Shown here: positions 1 to 11,446 of the stretch, in pieces
How the letters are laid out: the number at the start of each line of letters is the position of its first letter
How positions within the stretch are numbered: the first letter of the stretch is position 1
NCBI GenBank assembly: GCA_049599475.1
Contig: JBMYOQ010000052.1
Span: forward strand, 1-31,078
From: Opitutales bacterium
GTDB taxonomy: Bacteria > Verrucomicrobiota > Verrucomicrobiia > Opitutales > JABSRG01
DNA length: 31,078 bases
Direction: 5' to 3'
Translations under genes and position numbers: made by a program
The notes under the pieces: generated by a model
Databases searched by the model: none
Seen by the model: the letters and a program-made list of their open reading frames with translations, nothing else
Told to the model about the DNA's origin: nothing

Positions 1-621
1 ATCCGCCAAAAGCTCGTCGAGAACGACCTCGTCGACTGCATGATTGCGCTTCCGGGGCAGTTGTTTTTTACGACACAGATTCCGGTTTGTATTTGGATTC
101 TTTCGAAGAACAAGACCGGCTCCGCGCAATCACCCTCACCCCAAACCCCTCTCCCAAAGGGTGAGGGACTTCGCGATCGGAGTCGTCAAACCCTGTTCAT
201 CGACGCCAGAAAATTGGGCTCGATGATTTCGCGCACCCAGAAGGAGCTTACTGCAGAAGATATTTCAAAAATCGCAGATACCTACCACTCATGGAAACAC
301 ACTTCTCCCACTGGGAGAAGTCGGGATGAGGGTTCGGAGAATAGCTCTTCTCCCACTGGGAGAAGCGGGGATGAGGGCCAGTCAAGCTATGAGAATATCC
401 CTGGATATTGTTATAGCGCAGCACTGGAAGACATCCGCAAGCACGACTACGTGCTAACTCCCGGGCGTTATGTCGGCGCGGCGGCCTTGGAGGATGATGG
501 CATTCCCTTCGAGACCAAGATGACCGAGCTAAGCCAGACGCTCTATGCGCAAATGGAGGAGTCGGCGAAGCTGGATGCCGTCATCCGCGACAACCTGAAA
601 GGACTCGGTTATGGCCAATAA
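1..621 (+). CDS. hsdM: Type I RM methyltransferase HsdM, C-terminal part (5' end outside window)
   Basis: The frame is open from base 1 ([34 protein letters not shown]...LFIDAR...[11 protein letters not shown]...LKGLGY). These are typical HsdM C-terminal motifs, and the gene lies upstream of hsdS and hsdR. Confidence 0.95.
133..167. repeat. REP-like hairpin element inserted in frame in hsdM
   Basis: CCCTCACCCCAAACCCCTCTCCCAAAGGGTGAGGG: CCCTCACCC (133-141) is the exact reverse complement of GGGTGAGGG (159-167). It is read as [12 protein letters not shown]. Confidence 0.7.
301..377. repeat. Two direct copies (45-bp period) of the hairpin element CTTCTCCC-ACT-GGGAGAAG..GGGATGAGGG, in frame in hsdM
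   Basis: Copies at 302-332 and 347-377, each with a perfect 8-bp stem. They look like reverse-orientation relatives of the 133-167 element and encode SPTGRS.DEG twice. Confidence 0.8.
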
Positions 622-716
622 ATTCAGGCAAAAAGAAACCCCGGCTCCTGTTAATCGCGAAGGACTAAGGAAGAAGTGCTCGGGGCATCAGTAGAAAACT
701 TAGCTAGAAACTACCC

Positions 717-1559
717 ATGGCCAAGAAAAATCAGTCCATCAACGTCACCGACATCGCGGTCTCCGTCACACAACGAGACGGGCAGGACTACATTTGCCTG
801 ACCGATATGGCCAAGGGCAAAGGCGACAACGCCCGAGCGGCCGACATCATCAAGAACTGGCTCCGCACACGCACCGCCCTCGAATTCCTCGGCACATGGG
901 AGAAAATCTATAACCCGGATTTTAAAGTGGTCGAATTCGACCACTTTAAATCCGAGGCAGGCCTACCGTCCTTTGTTCTCAGCCCGACACAATGGGTCGA
1001 GCAGACCGCTGCTATCGGCATTTTCTCCAAGGCCGGGCGCTACGGTGGCACCTACGCCCATAAGGACATCGCATTCGAATTTGGCTCTGCCATCAGTGCA
1101 GAATTCAAGCTCTACCTCATTCGAGAATTCCAGCGGCTCAAAGACGACGAAAACGAGCGCCTCTCACTCTCGTGGAATCTCAACCGTACCCTTTCGAAGA
1201 TCAACTACCGCATCCACACCGATGCGATTAAAGACCAACTGATCCCGGCCCAAGTGTCCAAGGCACAAGCCGCCATCACTTACGCCAGTGAAGCCGACTT
1301 GCTCAATGTCGCCCTCTTCGGCCAAACCGCCAAGCAGTGGCGAGACGGGAACCCCAACCTCAAAGGCAACATTCGCGACCATGCCAGCATCGAGCAGCTC
1401 CTCGTGCTCGCAAATATCGAATCCATGAATGCTGAGCTGATTCATATGCAACTCAGTGCCTCCGAACGGCTGATCAAGCTCAACACAATAGCCATTCGTC
1501 AAATGCAATCGCTCACCACGAATGCGCAGCTCACGAAGCAACTACCAGACAATGTCTAA
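717..1559 (+). CDS. KilA-N domain DNA-binding protein
   Basis: Motifs DYICLTDMAK, IKNWLRTRTALEFLGTWE, GRYGGTYAHKDIAFEF and LSKINYRIHTDAIK match the KilA-N family often found in type I RM loci. Confidence 0.88.
   Translation: MAKKNQSINVTDIAVSVTQRDGQDYICLTDMAKGKGDNARAADIIKNWLRTRTALEFLGTWEKIYNPDFKVVEFDHFKSEAGLPSFVLSPTQWVEQTAAIGIFSKAGRYGGTYAHKDIAFEFGSAISAEFKLYLIREFQRLKDDENERLSLSWNLNRTLSKINYRIHTDAIKDQLIPAQVSKAQAAITYASEADLLNVALFGQTAKQWRDGNPNLKGNIRDHASIEQLLVLANIESMNAELIHMQLSASERLIKLNTIAIRQMQSLTTNAQLTKQLPDNV
921..950. repeat. Perfect 30-bp palindrome inside the KilA-N coding sequence
   Basis: TTTAAAGTGGTCGAATTCGACCACTTTAAA is its own reverse complement and extends to 916-954 with one bulged T. Both strands read VEFDHFK (see antisense ORF 711..944). 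Confidence 0.97.
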
Positions 1560-1577
1560 GCACGAAGCAATGAAACT

Positions 1578-1618
1578 TTCACAATTCACTCTTCACCACT
1601 CACTCTTCGCCGCAGGCG
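1578..1618. repeat. Degenerate 7-bp tandem tract followed by a GC mini-hairpin
   Basis: TTCACAA TTCACTC TTCACCA CTCACTC TTCGCCG, overlapping CGCC-GCA-GGCG (1608-1618). It sits directly before the hsdM 3' relic. Confidence 0.7.
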
Positions 1619-1622
1619 TAGT

Positions 1623-1704
1623 GCTCTACGCGCAAATGGAGGAGTCGGCGAAGCTGGATGAAGTGATTCGGAAAAACTTGGAGGGCTTGGGGTATGGGAG
1701 GTGA
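1623..1704 (+). pseudogene. Duplicated hsdM 3'-end relic ([26 protein letters not shown])
   Basis: 1623-1660 matches 540-577 at 37/38 nt, and peptide similarity continues to the stop. The relic overlaps the hsdS start. Confidence 0.9.
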
Positions 1705-3091
1705 GTGGAGAACAGCCCGATTTGAAGACCTCCTCTTGGAGCCGGTTAGGAACGGCATCTACAAGAAAAAGGAGTTCCATGGCAGAGGTGCCAAGATCGT
1801 CAACATGGGAGAACTCTTCCGCTATCCGCGTCTTTCTGACGTGGAAATGAAGCGAGTTGAACTCACCGAAAAAGAAGTTCCGACAGTTCTACTTCAGAGT
1901 GGAGATCTGCTGTTTGCCCGGCGGTCACTGACAGCAGAAGGAGCCGGCAAATGCTCGATAGTGCGAGAGGTAAACGAGGCCACCACGTTTGAGTCATCAA
2001 TCATTCGAGCGCGCCCCAATCCCGAATTGGCCGACTCTGATTTTCTCTACTACTTCTACTCATCCGAGATTGGATACAACCTTCTCGATTCCATCCGAAG
2101 GTCTGTAGCTGTTTCAGGAATCACCGGAGGAGATCTCAAGAATCTTGAGCTAACCATTCCACCCCTCCCCGAGCAAAAAGCGATCGCTCACATCTTGGGC
2201 ACCTTGGATGACAAGATTGAGTTGAATCGGCGGATGAATGCGACCCTTGAAGGGATGGCGCAGGCGCTCTTCAAAAGCTGGTTTGTGGACTTTGACCCGG
2301 TGATCGACAATGCCCTCGCCGCCGGCAATCCCATCCCCGACGAACTCACCCCCCGCGCCGAAGTCCGCAAGAAGGCCCTCGCCAACGGCACCACCCAACA
2401 GGGTTCAGTCGACCGCCCAACCCCGTCTGATCCCAAATCCCTCTTTCCTGCTGCGTTTGAATTCACCGAAGAGCTGGGCTGGATTCCAGAGGGATGGGAA
2501 GTAAACGAATTCGGGCATCTAGCGCAGAACGTTCGCGAGGGTGTCGATCCTACGACCCTGCCAGCACAAACCCCTTACGTCGGACTTGAGCATATCGATA
2601 AACAAGGCCTTTCCCTCTCACGTTGGGGCACCGCAGCTGAAGTCGATAGCCAGAAGTCACACTTCAAACCTGATGATTTCCTGTTTGGAAAGCTCCGGCC
2701 ATACTTCCACAAAGTCTGCCACGTTATTTCTGAAGGAATCTGCTCGACTGATATTCTGGTGATACGGCCACACCGAGAAGACGATGCCGGATATGTCGGT
2801 TGCCAAATCTTCGAACCGGAGTTCGTCGAATACGCTAACCTTCGCAGCACCGGCACTAGAATGCCTCGGGCAAGCTGGAAAGATATGGCCCAGTATGAAG
2901 TGGCCTGCCCCCCAGAAAACCTCCGCAAGGCATTCAACGATCTCATCAAGCCAACTCGCGAAAAGTGTGCAGGAGCCGTTATCGCCAATCAAAACCTTGG
3001 CAAACTCCGCGACACCCTCCTCCCGGAACTCATCTCCGGCGACCTCCGCCTTTCCGACGCAAACGAACTAATTGAGGAGGTGGCCGGATGA
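1694..3091 (+). CDS. hsdS: Type I RM specificity subunit HsdS
   Basis: Two TRDs with conserved spacers PPLPEQKAIAHILGTLDDKIELNRRMNATLEGMAQALFKSWFVDF and ELGWIPEGWEV, and C-terminal LRDTLLPELISGDL. Confidence 0.97.
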   Translation: MGGEWRTARFEDLLLEPVRNGIYKKKEFHGRGAKIVNMGELFRYPRLSDVEMKRVELTEKEVPTVLLQSGDLLFARRSLTAEGAGKCSIVREVNEATTFESSIIRARPNPELADSDFLYYFYSSEIGYNLLDSIRRSVAVSGITGGDLKNLELTIPPLPEQKAIAHILGTLDDKIELNRRMNATLEGMAQALFKSWFVDFDPVIDNALAAGNPIPDELTPRAEVRKKALANGTTQQGSVDRPTPSDPKSLFPAAFEFTEELGWIPEGWEVNEFGHLAQNVREGVDPTTLPAQTPYVGLEHIDKQGLSLSRWGTAAEVDSQKSHFKPDDFLFGKLRPYFHKVCHVISEGICSTDILVIRPHREDDAGYVGCQIFEPEFVEYANLRSTGTRMPRASWKDMAQYEVACPPENLRKAFNDLIKPTREKCAGAVIANQNLGKLRDTLLPELISGDLRLSDANELIEEVAG

Positions 3092-4659
3092 GTCCCACCT
3101 TGAGCTTTTCTGCGATTCTTCGCCAAACGACCGGACGCGACTTGAGCGCAGACGGAGTCTTTGAAGGGCTCACCGACTTCGGCCTGTTCGCTGAGAAGAT
3201 GCCGCCGTGCTTCACCTCGGAAGGCCTTTCAGCTCACGTCAATGCAGCACTGGCAAAGATCGAAACGGAATCTGACTCGAACGAACTCAAAAAGCACTTT
3301 GGGAAAGTCATCCATTCACAGATTCGATACCAGTCTCTTAGAGACATCAATATTCCTCGCCATTTAGCGATACCCCACCCGGAAAGTTACTTAGCGCACT
3401 GCCTTGCGATTAAACGGTGCTGGCAGAAGATCAAAACCCATTGCGCCAAGCCTTCAAAGCCGATCAGCCGCATCTTCGTTCGACAGACAAGTGAAAACCG
3501 CGTCTTCAAGATGAATTACAAAGGCTTGGAACGCTTCGAGGTGGAGGAAGATGAAATCGGCTATCAAACCGGCGCAACCCACTTGGTGAAGGCTGATATT
3601 TCCAAGTGCTTTCCCAGTATCTACACCCATTCAATTCCCTGGGCGATTCATGGGAAAGCCAATGCGAAGAAGAATCGCAACCTCCTCCTGGAGGGAAATC
3701 TACTCGATAGGTCGTGTCAGATTCTCTCTGACAATCAAACCAATGGCTTGGCGATCGGGCCTCATTCTTCAAACGTGATTTCTGAGATCATCCTCACGAG
3801 GATTGACGAGACTCTGCTAAAAAAGGGCTATACACGCCTCACTCGCCACATCGACGATTACTCGTTTTACGCAACGAGCCACCAGGAGGCAGAAACGTTT
3901 GTCCGAGACCTGAATTTGGCGCTCCGCGAATACGAGCTCTACATTAACGAAAAGAAAACGCAGATCGTTGAACTTCCCCAGCCGGCATCTGCCAGCTGGG
4001 TGAGCGAGCTCAATCGATTTACGTTCCCCGACGGGGAAATTCGCTTTTCGTCTGTTCGCTCGTTCTTGGATCTGGCCCTCGAATTGAGCAGGCAACATGG
4101 CACCTCGGCTGTCTTGAACTATGCAATCAAGATGGTTCCAAATCGCCTAAATAATCGAGCAAAGCGCCTGTTCACTGCTGAGGCCACCAACCTCTGTCTC
4201 GCCTATCCGTATCTCGCGCCCATCATGGAAGAGACCGTGTTCGTGAAGCATCGAAACTCCGAAACTGATGATCAGATCGAAGTTCTTGGCAATGAGCTGA
4301 TCAAAATTGGGATTGATAAGATTCACCCAGACTCGATCGCCCACGCCCTCCACTTCGCAATCGAACACGACTTTCAAATCGACCTCACCGAAGACGAGCT
4401 CAAGGAAATCATCCAGATAGACGACTGTCTGAGTAATGTTCTTCTCTGGGAATACGCCGGCCTGAAGAGTCTTACCAAAGTAAAGAAGTGGCTCCGAACA
4501 AGAGCGAACAACCTAAAGGGCCAAGAGAAACCAGATCAGGATGCTCAGTGGCTCTTGATCTACACGATCTGGACTGACGGGGACTTGCGCGGAAGCGGCC
4601 AAGCTTTTCTAGCTGACCTCAAAAAGAACAACTTCGAGTTCACAAAATTCTCATCATGA
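3088..4659 (+). CDS. Reverse transcriptase, defence-associated (DRT4/UG15-like), 523 aa
   Basis: RT motifs ADISKCFPSIYTHSIPWA, GLAIGPHSSNVISEIIL, RHIDDY (catalytic DD) and INEKKT, plus a helical C-terminal extension. N-terminal EKMPPC, PRHLAIPHP and MNY motifs resemble DRT4 as I recall it. The RT call is strong; the subtype is less certain. Confidence 0.85.
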   Translation: MSPTLSFSAILRQTTGRDLSADGVFEGLTDFGLFAEKMPPCFTSEGLSAHVNAALAKIETESDSNELKKHFGKVIHSQIRYQSLRDINIPRHLAIPHPESYLAHCLAIKRCWQKIKTHCAKPSKPISRIFVRQTSENRVFKMNYKGLERFEVEEDEIGYQTGATHLVKADISKCFPSIYTHSIPWAIHGKANAKKNRNLLLEGNLLDRSCQILSDNQTNGLAIGPHSSNVISEIILTRIDETLLKKGYTRLTRHIDDYSFYATSHQEAETFVRDLNLALREYELYINEKKTQIVELPQPASASWVSELNRFTFPDGEIRFSSVRSFLDLALELSRQHGTSAVLNYAIKMVPNRLNNRAKRLFTAEATNLCLAYPYLAPIMEETVFVKHRNSETDDQIEVLGNELIKIGIDKIHPDSIAHALHFAIEHDFQIDLTEDELKEIIQIDDCLSNVLLWEYAGLKSLTKVKKWLRTRANNLKGQEKPDQDAQWLLIYTIWTDGDLRGSGQAFLADLKKNNFEFTKFSS

Positions 4660-4860
4660 AATTCACCGAAGCCCAACTCGAATCAGCCTGCGCCCTTGGG
4701 CGAATGATAAATGCTAAGTTATGAGTGCTGAATAAAAAACTCCTGACTTAAACCATAGATTTCCAATGAAACCCAGCTCCAAAGAATCCCAAAATACCGA
4801 ATGGAAAGTGTCATGGCATGACGACTACCTGAAGTGGATTTGTGGTTTCGCGAATGCGGA
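4656..4860 (+). repeat. 205-bp direct repeat, copy A (hsdR start relic MKFTEAQLESA + hairpin + heptamer tract + AlbA gene start)
   Basis: Aligns with 6199-6403; by eye there are 7 substitutions and 2 single-base indels. Confidence 0.95.
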
Positions 4861-4900
4861 TAGCGAACCCGAGGGGGTTCGAGTGATAATTTATGAGTAA
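4766..4900 (+). pseudogene. Truncated copy of the AlbA_2 gene 5' end (44-aa mini-ORF)
   Basis: MKPSSKESQNTEWKVSWHDDYLKWICGFANA matches the N-terminus of 6309..7658, then diverges at the hairpin CGAACCC-GAGG-GGGTTCG (4864-4881). Its stop overlaps the ATG at 4893. Confidence 0.85.
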
Positions 4901-5381
4901 GTTCACCGAAGCAAAGTTAGAGGAGGCAATCATCAGTCTGCTCGGAGAACAGGGATTTCATCACAGGTTCGGTGAGAGCATAACACGGGCTGCGGATTCG
5001 GAGGTATTGATCAAAGAGGACCTGCGCACATTCCTTTCGAGGCAGTATGCTGCAGATGGTATTACCGAGTATGAAATCGAAGCGGTTATCAATCAGCTCG
5101 AAGCCTATTCCGCAGCCGATCTCTACGAAAGCAACAAGGCGATTATGCAATTGGTCGCGGACGGCTTTCTCCTGAAGCGCGAAGACCACACCCAGAAGGA
5201 TCTCTACATCCAGCTGATCGACTACTCCGGGCTGGTCGCCTTTCGCGAGCCGACGCCCGACCAAGTCGGTTTCTATCGCCATCGTGCGATTGTTCCTGCT
5301 ATGTTCCCGAAATCTGTTTCGGAAACATATATCAACCGCCAAGGCATCAATGACTTAGAGGGAGGATTAATCAGCAGATGA
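4893..5381 (+). pseudogene. Truncated hsdR 5' duplicate (about 120 codons) with an unrelated tail
   Basis: 4893-~5252 is near-identical to 7651-~8010 (KFTEAKLEEAIISLLG...QLIDYS.LVAFREP). It lacks the PD-ExK and helicase motifs. Confidence 0.9.
5300..5329. repeat. Hairpin/palindrome upstream of DUF3800
   Basis: TATGTTCCCGAAA-TCTG-TTTCGGAAACATA, with 12 of 13 stem positions paired. Confidence 0.75.
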
Positions 5382-6139
5382 AGGTTTTGTTTCTAGACGA
5401 GAGCGGTGATCATAACCTTACGGTTATTGATCCGCAGTATCCCCTCTTTGTCCTAGGTGGAGTTGTCATGGACTTAGACTACGCGAAAGGAGCTGCCACC
5501 GAGATGGTGAATGCCTTTAAGCGAGACTTGTTTGGCACCGAGGCCATCCACCTTCACACCGCAGACATCACCCGAAACCGCAACGGCTTTGAACGACTCA
5601 AAGAACCAGCCTTCAGAAAAACCTTTTACGAGCAGCTGAATGTATTAATGAAGGCGTTGGAATACGAAGTCATCGCCTGTGTGATTAAAAAGGAAGCACA
5701 CCTCCAGCGATATGGAATGGCAGCGGTTGATCCCTACATGCTGAGTCTCGATATTTTGGTCGAACGCTTTGGCATGATGATCGGCGACAAAGAAGGCGGA
5801 GGTATAATCATCGCAGAGAAGCGAGGCCCCACTCTGGATCGCCAATTGGAGATCGCTTGGTTAAATCTTAAAGTGCAAGGCACCCGCTTTATGCAAGCGG
5901 CCCAGATCGAGCGTCGTATTCAGTCCCTCATTCTTAGAGATAAAAAAGCGAATATCGCTGGAATACAGTTAGCCGACTTGGTCGTCACCCCCATCGGGCG
6001 TAAAGTTCTCAACAAGCGAATCAAAGAGGATTATCGCATCGTTGAATCTAAAATGCGCCGTAGTCCGAGCGGACGCATTGATGGGTATGGACTCGTTGTA
6101 TTGCCCAAAGAAAAAAGGCCAACCCCCGCTACGCAGTGA
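5378..6139 (+). CDS. DUF3800 family protein (predicted RNase H-like fold)
   Basis: N-terminal LFLDESGDH, central LHTADI and C-terminal AGIQLADLV motifs. There is a GGAGG RBS upstream and an ATGA overlap with the hsdR relic. Confidence 0.85.
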   Translation: MKVLFLDESGDHNLTVIDPQYPLFVLGGVVMDLDYAKGAATEMVNAFKRDLFGTEAIHLHTADITRNRNGFERLKEPAFRKTFYEQLNVLMKALEYEVIACVIKKEAHLQRYGMAAVDPYMLSLDILVERFGMMIGDKEGGGIIIAEKRGPTLDRQLEIAWLNLKVQGTRFMQAAQIERRIQSLILRDKKANIAGIQLADLVVTPIGRKVLNKRIKEDYRIVESKMRRSPSGRIDGYGLVVLPKEKRPTPATQ

Positions 6140-6148
6140 TCAACCTAT
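6107..6148 (-). ncRNA. Candidate tiny antisense structured RNA (DUF3800-associated motif type)
   Basis: Minus strand AGGUUGAUCACUGC-GUA-GCGGGGGUUGGCCU followed by UUUUUCUUU. It pairs at 13 of 14 positions, with five G-U wobbles that fail on the plus strand. A weak upstream promoter TTGATA-N17-GATGTT lies at 6183-6155. Confidence 0.5.
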
Positions 6149-6198
6149 GCTCCTAACATCGACCAAAACCTCCTCTTTATCAAGCTAAATCCTTTGAT

Positions 6199-6403
6199 AT
6201 GAAATTCACCGAAGCCCAACTCGAATCCGCCTGCGCCCTTGGGGCGAATGATAAGTGCTAAGTTATGAGTGCTGAATAAAAACTCCTGACTAAGACGATA
6301 GATTTCCAATGAAACCCAACTCCAAAGAATCCCAAAACACCGAATGGAAAGTGTCATGGCATGACGACTACCTGAAGTGGATTTGTGGTTTCGCGAATGC
6401 GGA
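6199..6403 (+). repeat. 205-bp direct repeat, copy B
   Basis: Matches 4656-4860 and runs into the intact AlbA_2 gene. Confidence 0.95.
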
Positions 6404-7658
6404 GGGCGGACGGCTGTTTATTGGGAAAAATGATTCAGGGAAGATTGTCGGTTTAAAGGGTGCGGAGAAGCTGCTTGAGGATTTGCCGAATAAGATTCGG
6501 GACAAGCTGGGCTTGATGCCCGCTATCGAGCTCCACGAAGAAGCGGGCAAAGCCAGCATCGAAATAATCGTAGAGCCTTCGAGTGTGCCGATCTCTTTGC
6601 GTGGGGCCTATTATTGGCGGTCGGGCAGCGTGAAGCAGGAGCTCACCGGCACGGCACTCAATGATTTCCTTTTGAAGAAAATGGGGCTGACTTGGGATCG
6701 CGTCATCGAGCCTAATGCCACGCTGGATGATATAGATCCTGTTGCCATTGAGGGCTTTAAAACTGATGCGACTAAGGCGGGGCGGTTGCCTGATTTGTCG
6801 GACTTGTCCGTGGAAGAGATTCTCAAAAAACTGCGCCTGACGACCCGTGATGGGATCACCCGGGCGGCCCTCGTTCTGTTCGGCAAGGACCCGGGCGAGT
6901 TTTATCCCAATCTCTTTGTGAAGATAGGCCGCTTTGGGCAGAGCGAGACGGATCTGCGTTTCCAGGAAGTCGTGGAAGGCAGCCTTATTACGATGCTGCC
7001 GGAAATCATCGAGCAGCTGGAGAAGAAGTTTCTCACTAAGCCGGTGCGCTTTGAGGGTATCCAGCGCATCGAAGAGCTGGAGTATCCCGTGGAAGCCCTG
7101 CGGGAGATGCTGCTCAATGCCTTGGTCCATCGTAACTACCTCGGCAGCATGACGCAGATGAAGGTCTATGACGCACGCCTGACCCTTTGGAATGCCGGGA
7201 CCTTGCCCGACGAGCTGAGCATCGAACAACTATTCCAACCCCACGAATCGATCCCCCGCAATCCCCTGATTGCCGAAGTGTGCTATCGCGCAGGATACAT
7301 TGACTCCTGGGGCCGAGGCGTCGAGAAAATCGGCGAAGCCTGCGAAGCCGCCCGCCTGCCGGCGCCAGTCTTTATCGAGCGCTCTGGCGGTGTGTTGGTG
7401 GAACTTTTCCGGACCGGTTCGGAGAAGAGTGAGGTGAAAAATGAGGTGAAAAATGAGGTGAAAAGTAAGGTGAAAACTCCCGACCTGCTCATGCAATTTT
7501 TAAAGGTCAATCCAACTGCTACACTTCAAGATGCAGCTGGTGAACTCGGAAAGTCCATCAGTTCCATGGAAAAGGTATCCGCCCAGCTAAGAAAAGAGGG
7601 TAAGTTGCGTTATGTAGGCCCCCAGAAGGGCGGTCACTGGGAGGTAATCGATGCGTAA
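6309..7658 (+). CDS. AlbA_2/Schlafen-domain protein with a RecG-C-like (HATPase_c_4) domain and C-terminal wHTH
   Basis: ESQNTEWK...ICGFANAEGGRLFIGKNDSG (AlbA_2), YPVEALREMLLNALVHRNY and PRNPLIA...IDSWGRG (HATPase_c_4), and G.LRYVGPQKGGHWEV (wHTH end). Confidence 0.9.
   Translation: MKPNSKESQNTEWKVSWHDDYLKWICGFANAEGGRLFIGKNDSGKIVGLKGAEKLLEDLPNKIRDKLGLMPAIELHEEAGKASIEIIVEPSSVPISLRGAYYWRSGSVKQELTGTALNDFLLKKMGLTWDRVIEPNATLDDIDPVAIEGFKTDATKAGRLPDLSDLSVEEILKKLRLTTRDGITRAALVLFGKDPGEFYPNLFVKIGRFGQSETDLRFQEVVEGSLITMLPEIIEQLEKKFLTKPVRFEGIQRIEELEYPVEALREMLLNALVHRNYLGSMTQMKVYDARLTLWNAGTLPDELSIEQLFQPHESIPRNPLIAEVCYRAGYIDSWGRGVEKIGEACEAARLPAPVFIERSGGVLVELFRTGSEKSEVKNEVKNEVKSKVKTPDLLMQFLKVNPTATLQDAAGELGKSISSMEKVSAQLRKEGKLRYVGPQKGGHWEVIDA
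7431..7478 (+). repeat. 12-bp in-frame tandem repeat x4 in the interdomain linker
   Basis: GAGGTGAAAAAT GAGGTGAAAAAT GAGGTGAAAAGT AAGGTGAAAACT, read as EVKN EVKN EVKS KVKT. Confidence 0.9.
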
Positions 7659-10600
7659 GTTCACCGAAGCAAAGCTGGAAGAGGCAATCATCAGTCTGCT
7701 CGGAGGACAGGGATTTCACCACAGGTTCGGTGAGAGCATAATACGGGCTGCGGAATCGGAGGTACTGATCAAAGACGACCTGCGCGCATTCCTTTCGAGG
7801 CAGTATGCGGCAGATGGCATTACCCAGCAGGAAATCGAAGCGGTTATCAATCAGCTCGAAGCCTATTCCGCAGCAGATCTCTACGAGAGCAACAAGGCGA
7901 TTATGCAGTTGGTCGCGGACGGCTTTCTCCTGAAGCGCGAAGACCCCACCCAGAAGGATCTCTACATCCAGCTGATCGATTATTCTGCCCTGGTCGCTTT
8001 CCGCGAACCGGAGCCTGGCGAGGTGACCTCCATTGTGGCCGAGGATGCGACCACTTACGGCTCTGGCAACAATCTCTTTAAAATCGTCAACCAACTAGAA
8101 ATCACCGGCACTGAGAAGCGCATCCCTGATGGCACCCTCTACATCAACGGCCTGCCTCTGGTTGTCTTTGAATTCAAGAGCGCTATTCGCGAAGAGGCGA
8201 CGATTTGGAATGCCTACGAGCAGCTCACTGTCCGATACCTGCGGGATATCCCTGAGCTGCTGAAGTATAATGCCTTTTGTGTGATTTCGGACGGAGTGAA
8301 TTCCAAGTGCGGCTCTTTGTTTGCGCCTTATGAGTTCTACTACGCATGGCGCAAGGTGACGGGCAATGAGTCTGTGGAGAAGGATGGCATCGATTCGCTC
8401 TACGCGATGATCCAAGGCTTGTTTGATCCAAAACGCCTGATCGATGTGATCCGTAATTTCATCTACTTTCCCGATGTTTCCCGGCGGGAAGACAAAATTT
8501 TATGTCGCTATCCTCAATACTACGCGGCGACTAAATTGTATCAGAATATCCTGAAACATCAGCGGCCCGAGGGGGATGGCAAGGGCGGCACGTATTTTGG
8601 CGCAACGGGTTGTGGGAAAAGCTATACCATGCTTTTCCTGACACGGCTCCTCATGAAGAGTGTGGCGCTCAAGAGCCCAACCATCGTGGTGATCACCGAT
8701 CGTACAGATTTGGACGATCAACTCTCGGGGCAATTTACGAACGGCAAAACATACATCGGCGATCAAGGGGTGATCAGCGTGGAAAGCCGCGAGCATTTGC
8801 GCGAGCTCTTGAAAGGGCGTAATAGCGGCGGTGTATTCCTGACGACCATACATAAGTTTACGGAAGATACTGAACTGCTGACCGATCGCACCAATGTGAT
8901 CTGCATATCCGATGAGGCGCACCGCAGTCAGGTGAATTTGGACCAGAAGGTGAGTGTCGATGAAAAGACGGGGACTGTGAAAAAGACCTTTGGCTTTGCC
9001 AAGTATCTGCATGACTCCTTGCCGAATGCGACCTATGTCGGCTTCACCGGCACACCCATCGATGCCACTCTCGATGTCTTTGGCGAGGTGGTGGACAGCT
9101 ACACCATAACGGAGTCGGTAGCCGACGAGATCACCGTGCCCATCGTTTACGAAGGCCGCGCTGCTAAGGTGATCCTCGATAACCGCAAGCTGGAGGAAAT
9201 TGAGAAATATTACGCATCATGCGCGGAAGCGGGAGCGAGTGAATACGCGATCGAAGACAGCAAGAAGACGATGGCCAACATGGGTGCCATCCTAGGGGAT
9301 CCACAGCGCATCGAAGCCTTGGCAGCAGATTTCGTAGAACACTATGAAAAGCGTATTGCCGAAGGTTCCACCGTGGCGGGTAAGGCGCTCTTCGTGAGCA
9401 GCAGTCGCCCGATAGCCTACGACTTTTATAAGCAGGTGATTAAATTGCGCCCTGAGTGGGGCGAGGTGAGGGTCGCTGCGGAAGGCGTTGAGCTGACCGA
9501 GAAGCAACAAAAGGAAATACTTCCTCTGGAGCGTATCAAAATGGTCATGACGCGGGGCAAGGATGACGAGAAAGCACTCTACGATTTGCTCGGCAATAAG
9601 GACGACCGCAAGAAGTTCGACACCCAGTTTAAGAAAGCCGAATCCAACTTCAAAATAGCGATTGTGGTGGATATGTGGCTGACCGGCTTTGACGTGCCTG
9701 AGCTAGACACCATCTACATCGACAAGCCGGTCCAGCGTCACAACCTGATCCAGACCATCTCCAGGGTGAACCGGAAGTTTGAGAATAAGAAGAAAGGCCT
9801 CGTGGTCGACTACATCGGCATTAAAAAGCAGATGAACCTCGCCCTGGCGCACTATTCGAAAGCGGACCAGAGTAATATCGAAGAGATCGAGGCTTCCATC
9901 GTCGTGGTGCGGGATCACTTAGATCTGCTAGGACGGTTGTTTCACCGCTTCGATGCTGCGCCTTACTTCAATGGCTCGCCAGGCGAGCAGTTGGAATGTC
10001 TGAACGAGGCTGCGGAGTATGTGCAGCTTACGGATAGGATAGAGAAGCGTTTCATGGCCTTGGTGAAGCGCCTTAAAGCCGCTTACGACATTTGCAGTGG
10101 CAGCGATGTTCTAAGTAAGGACGAGCGTGATCACATCCACTTTTACTTAGCAGTGAGGTCGATCGTTGCCAAGCTGACTAAAGGCGAAGCTCCTGACAGC
10201 GCCCAGATGAATGCCAAAGTGCGCGACATGATATCCGAGGCTTTGCAAAGCGATGGGATCGAAGAGATCTTTCAGCTAGGCGAAGATACGGCGACAGAGA
10301 TTGATATTTTCGGCGACGACTACCTCGCAAAAATCGAGAAGGTCAAACTACCGAACACCAAGATTAAGCTGCTCCAACAGCTGCTGAAAAGAGCCATCGA
10401 CGACTTAAAGAAGGTAAACAAGGTCAAGGGCGTAGACTTTTCGCAAAAATTCCAGTCATTGGTCGCTAAATACAACGAGCGCGATGAGGAGACAACCCTT
10501 GTAAGTGACGTACTCGATGATTTCGCCGGAGAGATCGTCGACCTCTTTAACGATCTGAAAGCCGAAAAAGAATCCTTCGGCGATATGGGCATCGATTTCG

Positions 10601-10881
10601 AGGAGAAGGCATTTTACGACATCCTCAAAACCTTGGCTCAGAAATACGATTTCACGTATCCCGAAGACAAACTAATCAAGCTCGCGAAAGAGGTCAAAAG
10701 GGTCGTCGACGACAAGGCCAAATACACAGACTGGAGCCAGCGCGACGACATCAAAGCCGAACTCAAAGTGGACCTGATTATCCTCCTCGCCGAGAACGGT
10801 TATCCGCCCGTGGATCGCGACGAGGTATACAAAGAGATCTTCGAGCAGGCTGAGAACTTTAAGAAGAATCGGAGAAACTGA
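7651..10881 (+). CDS. hsdR: Type I RM restriction subunit HsdR
   Basis: Nuclease motif RIPD...INGLPLVVFEFK, Walker A GATGCGKS, DEAH box, GFTGTP, MWLTGFD and QTISRVNR; 1076 aa. Confidence 0.97.
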   Translation: MRKFTEAKLEEAIISLLGGQGFHHRFGESIIRAAESEVLIKDDLRAFLSRQYAADGITQQEIEAVINQLEAYSAADLYESNKAIMQLVADGFLLKREDPTQKDLYIQLIDYSALVAFREPEPGEVTSIVAEDATTYGSGNNLFKIVNQLEITGTEKRIPDGTLYINGLPLVVFEFKSAIREEATIWNAYEQLTVRYLRDIPELLKYNAFCVISDGVNSKCGSLFAPYEFYYAWRKVTGNESVEKDGIDSLYAMIQGLFDPKRLIDVIRNFIYFPDVSRREDKILCRYPQYYAATKLYQNILKHQRPEGDGKGGTYFGATGCGKSYTMLFLTRLLMKSVALKSPTIVVITDRTDLDDQLSGQFTNGKTYIGDQGVISVESREHLRELLKGRNSGGVFLTTIHKFTEDTELLTDRTNVICISDEAHRSQVNLDQKVSVDEKTGTVKKTFGFAKYLHDSLPNATYVGFTGTPIDATLDVFGEVVDSYTITESVADEITVPIVYEGRAAKVILDNRKLEEIEKYYASCAEAGASEYAIEDSKKTMANMGAILGDPQRIEALAADFVEHYEKRIAEGSTVAGKALFVSSSRPIAYDFYKQVIKLRPEWGEVRVAAEGVELTEKQQKEILPLERIKMVMTRGKDDEKALYDLLGNKDDRKKFDTQFKKAESNFKIAIVVDMWLTGFDVPELDTIYIDKPVQRHNLIQTISRVNRKFENKKKGLVVDYIGIKKQMNLALAHYSKADQSNIEEIEASIVVVRDHLDLLGRLFHRFDAAPYFNGSPGEQLECLNEAAEYVQLTDRIEKRFMALVKRLKAAYDICSGSDVLSKDERDHIHFYLAVRSIVAKLTKGEAPDSAQMNAKVRDMISEALQSDGIEEIFQLGEDTATEIDIFGDDYLAKIEKVKLPNTKIKLLQQLLKRAIDDLKKVNKVKGVDFSQKFQSLVAKYNERDEETTLVSDVLDDFAGEIVDLFNDLKAEKESFGDMGIDFEEKAFYDILKTLAQKYDFTYPEDKLIKLAKEVKRVVDDKAKYTDWSQRDDIKAELKVDLIILLAENGYPPVDRDEVYKEIFEQAENFKKNRRN

Positions 10882-11052
10882 GAAAGCAGAAAGTAAAATG
10901 AACCCCTTCCGCTCTAATCCGCGTCTTCAGTGGCAAAAATTTCCAGCACTTAAAAGGCTTGGAGAAGAATCTGTTAACATTACTGCCAGCCCTAAACCGG
11001 CTGCCCACCTTTGCTAGGTTGCCTTTTGGTCGGATAGCTGAAACCTGTGGTG

Positions 11053-11355
11053 ATGAAGAAAACTTTTTCGCTCTTACATCCCAAGAAGCAACCGGCTCGG
11101 CAATTGGATGCCGTGAAGGCTGAGATCAATAAATACCTGAAGCGGGAGCGTGGGAAGCCGCTTCCCGAGGGGTCGGATTATTGGGACTTTAAGTGCAAAT
11201 GCGGGTCCGATGGTGGAGAGGTCCGTGAGATCCACGTCGCCGAAATTTCCAAAAGCCTGGATGCAGTCCAAGCTTCTGGAGCAGAAGCCTGCTACGTCGA
11301 AATCCTCACTAAGCCTGCAAAACGAGCCGCGAAAAAAGGGACGCAACGGCGATAG
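11053..11355 (+). CDS. DUF6172-like small protein
   Basis: MKKTF.L.HPK...KYLKRER.KPLPEG.DYWDF.C and YVEIL.KP pattern. The ATG at 11053 is preferred over the GTG at 11047. Confidence 0.75.
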   Translation: MKKTFSLLHPKKQPARQLDAVKAEINKYLKRERGKPLPEGSDYWDFKCKCGSDGGEVREIHVAEISKSLDAVQASGAEACYVEILTKPAKRAAKKGTQRR

Positions 11356-11356
11356 A

Positions 11357-11446
11357 GAACCCCGCCATGAGCAGCGGGGTATTTGAAATTAGAATTTAGA
11401 TTGTAGACGCCGCAAGCAGCGGGGAATTCAACACTCAGAGATTAAA
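11357..11446. repeat. Paired imperfect hairpins, possible IS200/IS605-end or REP-type miniature element
   Basis: ACCCCGCCATGAGCAGCGGGGTAT (11359-11382) and ACGCCGCAAGCAGCGGGGAAT (11407-11427) share AGCAGCGGGG. Confidence 0.5.

Follow-up and report, generated by a model that had tools for sequence, protein, structure and literature searches.

A DRT4 reverse transcriptase among four cassettes embedded in a type I restriction-modification operon of a marine Verrucomicrobiota bacterium

The window analyzed here is the whole 31-kb contig (C52; JBMYOQ010000052.1, 31,078 nucleotides [nt]) of the 4.68-Mb draft genome of an Opitutales bacterium (GCA_049599475.1), and its first 10.9 kb form a single co-directional row of genes on the + strand. 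Within this row, a reverse transcriptase (RT) gene (3088-4659, + strand) lies between hsdS and hsdR of a type I restriction-modification (RM) operon, that is, in the position known from prrC; this placement, originally proposed from the sequence alone, was confirmed by Pfam and PADLOC gene calls. The contig begins inside hsdM, of which the C-terminal part is present (1-621, + strand; Pfam N6_Mtase, E = 5.9e-29; PADLOC MTase_I, E = 1.5e-46). The hsdS gene (1694-3091, + strand), encoding 465 amino acids (aa), has the Pfam domain Methylase_S and matches PADLOC Specificity_I over residues 1-462 (E = 1.1e-100). A full-length hsdR (7651-10881, + strand; 1076 aa) matches PADLOC REase_I with 1339 bits over residues 3-1076 and carries the Pfam domains HSDR_N, SWI2_SNF2, T1R_D3-like, and T1RH-like_C.

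The RT open reading frame (ORF) is intact, being open over 523 codons, and its ATG (3088-3090) overlaps the hsdS stop codon TGA (3089-3091) in the form ATGA. A Shine-Dalgarno sequence, GAGGAGG, could be read inside hsdS (3075-3081, + strand), 6 nt before this ATG. No intergenic DNA lies upstream of the RT, so there is no room for a noncoding RNA (ncRNA) on its 5' side, and an Rfam search of 1-11400 at E ≤ 0.1 matched no ncRNA family up- or downstream of the gene. Across the same interval, one sigma-70-like site was found against 6.9 expected, at 7715 and away from the RT, with a consensus that may not suit this phylum. A consensus scan for terminators, which carries no information for this phylum, gave 17 terminator-like sites against 13.5 expected; from the RT stop to 4893 it gave none except weak in-gene matches. 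The intact frame, its overlap with hsdS, and the missing room for a promoter, all pointed out in the original prediction, are thus borne out, and the last of these is typical of embedded DRT4 copies.

Profile, sequence, and structure comparisons all place the protein in the DRT4 family. The PADLOC Drt4 model PDLC02178 aligned with RT residues 17-520 over model positions 10-501 of 506 (E = 8.5e-151), ahead of Drt6 (E = 6.8e-97), UG30 (4e-64), AbiK (1e-39), and also UG14, while RVT_1 was the only Pfam domain in the protein. The best phmmer matches in the PDB were chains of Escherichia coli DRT4/UG15 (21ou, 9vdo, and 9ltm; E about 7e-52, RT residues 37-492). An AlphaFold2 (AF2) model built with 33 homologues had a mean pLDDT (its predicted score in the local distance difference test) of 83.6 and a predicted template modeling (pTM) score of 0.84, and its best fold match in the PDB was DRT4 itself (9vdo_A; template modeling [TM] scores of 0.78/0.82), followed by UG15 (9l9s) and DRT6 (9wy8; 0.77/0.81). 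AbiK matched at 0.64, and RTs of group II introns, retrons, and diversity-generating retroelements reached only about 0.3, which excludes a retron or group II intron RT. Residues 303-513 of the model are all-helical and correspond to the alpha-helical repeat (alpha-Rep) domain that stands in place of the thumb in DRT4. The RT, first described as DRT4-like, is therefore a member of DRT4 proper (UG15, class 1 UG/Abi).

The likeness to the E. coli enzyme extends from the profile, sequence (E = 7e-52), and predicted fold (TM about 0.8) to the alpha-Rep domain, which replaces the thumb in both proteins, and to a single-gene system with no room for an ncRNA at the RT. The two proteins differ in that identity is about 29% in Foldseek alignments, that the RT has HIDD where the E. 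coli enzyme has YIDD, that it is 523 rather than 540 aa long with a C-terminal tail outside the HMMER alignment, and that it is a downstream cistron of hsdS while the E. coli gene is stand-alone. With the other class 1 UG/Abi members AbiK, Abi-P2, and DRT6, the RT shares its fold and, by the literature, protein-primed untemplated synthesis; AbiK and DRT6 nevertheless gave lower profile scores than Drt4, and the column of Tyr144 holds F, L, or Y in 10 Drt6-like rows.

The residues on which the E. coli enzyme is reported to depend have counterparts in the RT. In E. coli DRT4, Tyr125 is described as the proven primer, with density joining it to the DNA 5' end, a dead Y125F mutant, and conservation across 174 systems; the catalytic residues are D240/D241, and F140 secures the interface of the trimer (PMC12783706). 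H160/D192 make up an RNase site, and the 3' base of the primer is the stacking partner of Y238 (10.64898/2026.10.21.760695). In the HMMER alignment, Tyr125 corresponds to Tyr144 (codon 3517-3519, + strand) at the end of an MNY motif (residues 142-144; 3511-3519, + strand), a residue whose role in priming had been offered as speculation and which now stands as the homologue of a proven one. Tyr144 is the predicted priming residue, H160 and D192 align with His181 (3628-3630, + strand) and Asp207 (3706-3708, + strand), the predicted RNase-site residues, motif A Asp149 with Asp170, and F140 with Tyr159. The catalytic box HIDD (residues 254-257; 3847-3858, + strand) aligns with YIDD 238-241, so that D256/D257 match D240/D241.

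Conservation at these positions is nearly complete. Tyr144 is Y in each of the 121 homologues that the protein search gave, and in 58 of the 61 DRT4 genes taken from species genomes; His181 and Asp207 are both kept in 121/121 homologues and 61/61 DRT4 genes; Asp256 in 121/121 and Asp257 in 120/121 homologues; and the motif A Asp and both box Asp are D in 61/61 DRT4 rows. The only internal stretch that the AF2 model gives with low confidence is the priming loop that holds Tyr144 (residues 137-151). The first residue of the box is variable, with H in 85, Y in 27, and N in 9 of the 121 homologues, and H in 28, Y in 12, N in 12, and other residues in 9 of the 61 DRT4 genes. The original prediction located the HIDD box correctly, but its apparent oddity beside YxDD does not hold, as H is the commonest residue there in the clade; HIDD is a common state, not a lesion. 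Nor is His254 tied to embedding in type I operons, as 13 embedded rows and 15 non-embedded ones have H; the residue tracks the clade and not the context.

These counts bear on whether the gene is a decaying or polymerase-dead passenger in which HIDD has replaced YxDD. Such a reading could draw on the report that, in E. coli DRT4, the Tyr of YIDD is the residue stacked against the 3' base (10.64898/2026.10.21.760695), and on a sister copy, in the relative L001, that is cut by a stop at codon 502. We consider it extremely unlikely: the ORF is intact, both Asp, Tyr144, His181, and Asp207 are conserved, H is the majority box state among intact relatives, and the ratio of nonsynonymous to synonymous substitution rates (dN/dS) of the RT is 0.10-0.11 against the relatives L001 and L002. 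The truncated copy in L001 (10001-11506) is the nearest relative of the RT, with 92% aa identity; its stop removes the C-terminal tail, and homology continues in frame past that stop. In UG15, the last 38 aa, the counterpart of the missing tail, have been reported as essential (PMC9226505). In the window RT, tail residues 493-523 are conserved among close relatives, with W495, L500, L508, L511, F516, and F518 invariant in the alignment.

The RT is one of four cassettes embedded in the operon, in which duplicated ends of hsdM (3') or hsdR (5') flank the other three, while the hsdS stop and an hsdR stub delimit the RT. Cassette 1 encodes a KilA-N protein (717-1559, + strand; Pfam KilA-N, E = 3.4e-19) that matches the PADLOC candidate family PDC-S22 (E = 4.3e-132). 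On either side of it lies a copy of the hsdM 3' end (540-614 and 1623-1697, both + strand); the copies are direct repeats of 75 nt with 80% identity, the second being a relic just before the hsdS start. Cassette 2 is the RT. Its stop is overlapped by the ATG of an 11-codon stub of the hsdR 5' end (4656-4688, + strand) that is identical letter for letter to the RT-hsdR junction of L002, where hsdR continues intact; the alignment of the RT with L002 runs on to 4688 at 89% nucleotide identity. A 213-nt block (4656-4868, + strand), comprising this stub, a spacer, and the first ~34 codons of an AlbA_2 gene, is repeated at 6199-6411 (+ strand) with 94-98% identity, there ahead of the complete AlbA_2 gene, and the second stub copy (6199-6231) is 97% identical to L002.

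Between the two blocks lie a scar and cassette 3. An ORF for a 162-aa HsdR N-terminal fragment (4893-5381, + strand; Pfam HSDR_N), which we read as a recombination scar, is headed by a 300-nt duplicate of the hsdR 5' end (4887-5186; 93% identity to 7645-7944), and its product agrees with the N-terminus of the resident full HsdR at 112 of 125 residues. Cassette 3 encodes a DUF3800 protein (5378-6139, + strand; Pfam DUF3800, E = 1.8e-14) and cassette 4 a Schlafen/AlbA_2 protein with HATPase_c_4 (6309-7658, + strand; Pfam SLFN_AlbA_2, E = 8e-12; HATPase_c_4, E = 7e-19). Every cassette junction except the RT start thus retains a duplicated piece of hsdR or hsdM.

Two further repeats were seen in the window. 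Four tandem 12-nt units (GGTGAAAAATGA-like) lie at 7421-7480, at the 3' end of the AlbA_2 gene and shortly before the hsdR start, and two 31-nt direct repeats, 45 nt apart and 94% identical, lie inside hsdM at 302-377.

Variants of the operon were found both in an independent marine metagenome (X2) and in the relatives. One X2 contig joins 539 to 1623, skipping the KilA-N cassette, and another end of X2 runs loose after 4688 with 27 letters that equal the L002 continuation of hsdR, which reads as an RT-hsdR form without the downstream cassettes. In L001 the RT is followed by a DUF6602 gene and by an hsdR fragment of that locus's own, and in L002 it is preceded by an Abi_C gene. For the same genome pairs (window versus L001 and L002), synonymous divergence (dS) was 0.34-0.51 in the RT and 1.4-1.5 in hsdR. 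Because RT dS is below hsdR dS, the RT cassette was shared more recently than the operon backbone, and by dS it is 3-4 times younger than the adjoining hsdR. Junction scars, this dS contrast, and the differing neighbors together fit cargo that would have been exchanged by recombination at conserved gene ends.

Embedding of this kind has been described elsewhere. A "guilt-by-embedding" survey explains it by shared regulation and recombination hotspots, and reports embedded genes to be co-oriented with the host operon in 96.7% (Payne et al. 2024, 10.1101/2024.01.29.577857). A recombination hotspot between hsdS and hsdR has likewise been remarked upon, with DarTG2 occupying it in enteropathogenic E. 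coli (EPEC) (PMC12255303). The window resembles the defense genes embedded in type I RM, BREX, and DISARM operons (10.1101/2024.01.29.577857) and the EPEC DarTG2 locus (PMC12255303) in slot, orientation, and the presence of several cassettes per operon. PDC-S22, the family of the KilA-N gene, is one of the candidate families of Payne et al.; a difference is that the sole DRT system named as embedded in the text of that survey is one DRT type III instance.

How often DRT4 occupies such a slot was examined in a scan of one genome per species, which gave at least 580 relatives, of which the best 80 loci were used. An RT ORF was called in 78 of these (none in L020 and L028), and PADLOC assigned 65 to DRT4 (best model PDLC02178 or PDLC02180) and 11 as best or equal to Drt6-like, the other 2 being fragments. 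Type I genes were called with Pfam on 291 flanking ORFs (two per side) and with local hidden Markov models (HMMs) of HsdM, HsdS, and HsdR on all stop-to-stop ORFs. They were present in 16 of the 65 DRT4 loci; the fetched flanks of the other 49 showed none. When only the 46 loci with 3 kb or more on each side are counted, 10 are type I. None of the 11 Drt6-like loci had a clear type I gene by the local HMMs; in one of them (L065), a 989-aa ORF downstream of the RT gave a weak, uncounted HSDR_N/HSDR_N_2 match in Pfam.

The arrangement in the 16 type I loci was position-specific, with eleven showing the order hsdM-hsdS-...RT...-hsdR and L058 the order hsdS-RT-hsdR; in L018 the RT follows hsdR, and the RT is followed by the contig end in L008 and L012. 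A Rhodoferax metagenome-assembled genome (MAG; L011:9525-17247) holds a decayed type I operon with only a 132-aa hsdM/hsdS relic before the RT and, after it, a Peptidase_M78 plus DUF4411 pair and then a full hsdR. Three HsdR architectures occur in the type I DRT4 loci, with T1RH-like_C, with EcoEI_R_C, or with neither. On a tree of 71 RTs (eight ORFs of less than 400 aa were dropped), with the type I label on 17 rows including the window, the label changed at least 9 times, at least 5 of these changes being forced by starred branches, and shuffled labels averaged 15.4 changes, with none of 500 shuffles as low as 9. These results show that the hsd association is recurrent (at least 5 separate lineages), partly inherited, and not obligate.

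The start of the RT lay within 20 nt of, or overlapped, an upstream gene on the same strand in 15 of the 16 type I loci against 5 of the 49 other DRT4 loci, in which the gaps upstream of the RT were mostly 50-700 nt; start codons here are longest-ORF calls, and true starts may lie somewhat downstream in some loci. Because of this contrast in the upstream gap, DRT4 can be said to occur in two forms, as a gene standing by itself and as a downstream cistron with no promoter of its own.

Several of the non-type-I DRT4 loci adjoin DUF499 ATPases, PLD-SNF2 plus methylase genes, DpnII, type IIG methylases, or plain housekeeping genes. In L004, L025, L027, and L047, RM-like clusters of other kinds have DRT4 at their 3' end (a DUF499 ATPase, or a PLD-SNF2 helicase plus a DUF1156 or Eco57I-type methylase), with a 4-nt overlap of the methylase stop in L027. 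Four Helicobacter pylori loci (L055, L057, L061, and L077) have DRT4 between a large upstream type IIG methylase-like gene and a downstream gene with a SocA/Panacea antitoxin domain; the RT ORF is shortened in three of them (376, 465, and 361 aa). Two loci from Acidobacteria (Multivoraceae; L023 and L024) carry DRT4 directly downstream of selB, and in Corallococcus (L067) a Drt6-like RT adjoins selA, neighbors that may reflect a shared insertion site near selenocysteine genes. An Epsilonproteobacteria MAG (L048:12089-12916) has, just downstream of DRT4, a KilA-N protein 60% identical to the PDC-S22 protein of the window (717-1559), and Bro-N domain proteins follow the RT in L007, L009, and L034. 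KilA-N as a fixed partner of the RT was rejected, as most type I DRT4 loci are without one.

The genome of the window also carries a second class 1 UG/Abi-type RT, of 553 aa (contig C69:20860-22302, - strand; L084:14741-16402; PADLOC Drt4, E = 6e-76). It lies at a contig end, with a phage-tail-collar-domain gene and then housekeeping genes downstream; no hsd genes stand beside it on the assembled downstream side, the upstream side being unassembled.

The position between hsdS and hsdR had suggested that the RT may be a back-up effector guarding the RM enzyme in the manner of PrrC. Such a guard would be silenced by HsdMS(R) or would sense its inhibition by phage anti-restriction proteins, and would then kill the cell. 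PrrC is described as silenced by EcoprrI, activated by a T4 inhibitor, and always RM-linked (PMC1484252, PMC3458546, PMC2610378). The RT shares its slot and is tightly coupled to hsdS, in an arrangement that recurs (16 of 65 loci; at least 9 changes on the tree, at least 5 forced) and occurs with all three HsdR architectures, and DRT4, like PrrC of the EcoprrI type Ic locus, is an abortive-infection gene ending in a nucleotide-responsive RNase (PMC1484252; 10.64898/2026.10.21.760695). Yet PrrC is an ABC-ATPase joined to an anticodon nuclease, to which the RT has no sequence or domain likeness, and it is RM-silenced and triggered by T4 Stp, while DRT4 is mostly found without RM and has triggers of its own; against a prrC that is reported as always R-M-linked (PMC3458546), 49 of 65 DRT4 loci have no type I gene in the fetched flanks.

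The slot, moreover, holds unrelated cargo, namely DUF3800, AlbA_2, and KilA-N genes here, DUF6602 in L001, Abi_C in L002, and DarTG2 in EPEC (PMC12255303), and the RT cassette is younger than the adjoining hsdR. The idea of an RM guard is unsupported because E. coli DRT4 is reported to act alone, as a single gene, with phage single-stranded DNA-binding protein (SSB) and deoxynucleoside triphosphates (dNTPs) as triggers in vitro and no RM partner; we regard a guard as very unlikely. A mostly stand-alone distribution and RM-independent activity, which would speak against a guard, largely describe the family, although the two nearest relatives (L001 and L002) are themselves located in homologous hsd operons. 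A stronger form, in which hsd-fused DRT4 copies assemble with or are gated by HsdMS, Ocr/ArdA unleash the polymerase-RNase, and the linkage arose several times, is just as improbable; if true, it would amount to a second, RT-based guard of the PrrC kind.

Somewhat less remote, but still unlikely in our view, is synergy without contact, in which cleavage of phage DNA by the RM enzyme, or translocation stalled on it, would supply the DRT4 trigger, for example through more SSB or altered dNTP pools, and selection would keep both systems together. The recurrence and position specificity of the association would suit it, and co-orientation is reported as general for embedded genes (96.7%; Payne et al. 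2024). Nothing in the sequence speaks to an interplay of RM and DRT4, however, many different systems occupy the slot, and the embedding literature favors shared regulation and recombination hotspots (10.1101/2024.01.29.577857; PMC12255303).

We therefore return to DRT4 as an autonomous system carried as cargo. The E. coli enzyme is described as a single-gene defense that is activated in vitro by phage SSB plus dNTPs, with no RM component (PMC12783706; 10.64898/2026.10.21.760695; 10.64898/2026.10.27.754916), and UG15 is listed among the stand-alone proteins (PMC9226505). It forms a dimer-of-trimers hexamer that makes purine-rich, untemplated, tyrosine-primed single-stranded DNA (ssDNA). Phage SSB-like proteins are reported to bind this ssDNA and the C-terminal tail, with raised dNTPs contributing, and the triggered enzyme to switch on a guanosine-specific RNase that aborts infection (PMC12783706; 10.64898/2026.10.21.760695; 10.64898/2026.10.27.754916; PMC9226505). 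The flexible tail that recognizes SSB spans residues 508-540 of the E. coli protein.

By analogy with that enzyme, the window RT would form a hexamer on which purine-rich, untemplated ssDNA would grow covalently from Tyr144; phage SSB would be captured on the ssDNA and the C-terminal tail, and the His181/Asp207 RNase would then be switched on, leading to cell death or arrest. Judging from the anatomy of the operon, the hsd promoter would drive the RT, whose translation would be coupled to that of hsdS. Restriction by the RM enzyme would then be the first barrier to incoming DNA, with DRT4 stopping those phages that replicate nonetheless, the two being layered and not physically wired. We consider it likely that the RT is a DRT4 that makes Tyr144-primed, untemplated ssDNA, acts as an autonomous abortive RNase triggered by SSB and dNTPs, and travels as co-transcribed, recombination-borne cargo of the RM operon.

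Several points weigh against this account. The contig end cuts hsdM, so that the promoter and the integrity of the RM system lie beyond the contig, and the RT is only probably co-transcribed with the RM operon; a search of sequencing runs for this DNA listed no RNA run. The HMMER alignment to E. coli DRT4 ends at RT residue 492, before the SSB-recognizing tail, and polymerase activity with His in place of the base-stacking Tyr238 is a prediction. One quarter of the sampled DRT4 loci lie in type I operons, a fraction that comes from the best-scoring 80 loci, which lean towards relatives of the window RT, and is not that of all DRT4; it still greatly exceeds what chance would give for a random gene and allows for a functional link beyond the present data. 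Finally, the short-read Logan contigs from X1, the likely source run, are interrupted at the repeats, and the doubled junctions could conceivably be an assembly path through two strain variants. Read depth is even, at about 20-31 in all bins but one, the bin at the repeat around 6199 reading 55, and the repeat copies at the doubled junctions differ by 2-7%.

The DRT4 family, its mechanism, and the embedding of defense genes in type I operons are already published, and what is known of DRT4 or of embedding is unchanged by the window. What it newly provides is an array of four cassettes with readable junction scars, variants of that array in the population, and counts of the box residues. The variable first residue of the DRT4 "YxDD" box (H, Y, N, and others) offers enzymologists a small, testable point on stacking at the primer end. 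The locus adds a well-documented case of layered immunity from the genome of one uncultured marine Verrucomicrobiota bacterium, in which restriction would be followed by an abortive-infection polymerase-RNase encoded on the same predicted transcript. It supports the gap between hsdS and hsdR as a recombination slot for defense cargo and shows how such layers may be built.

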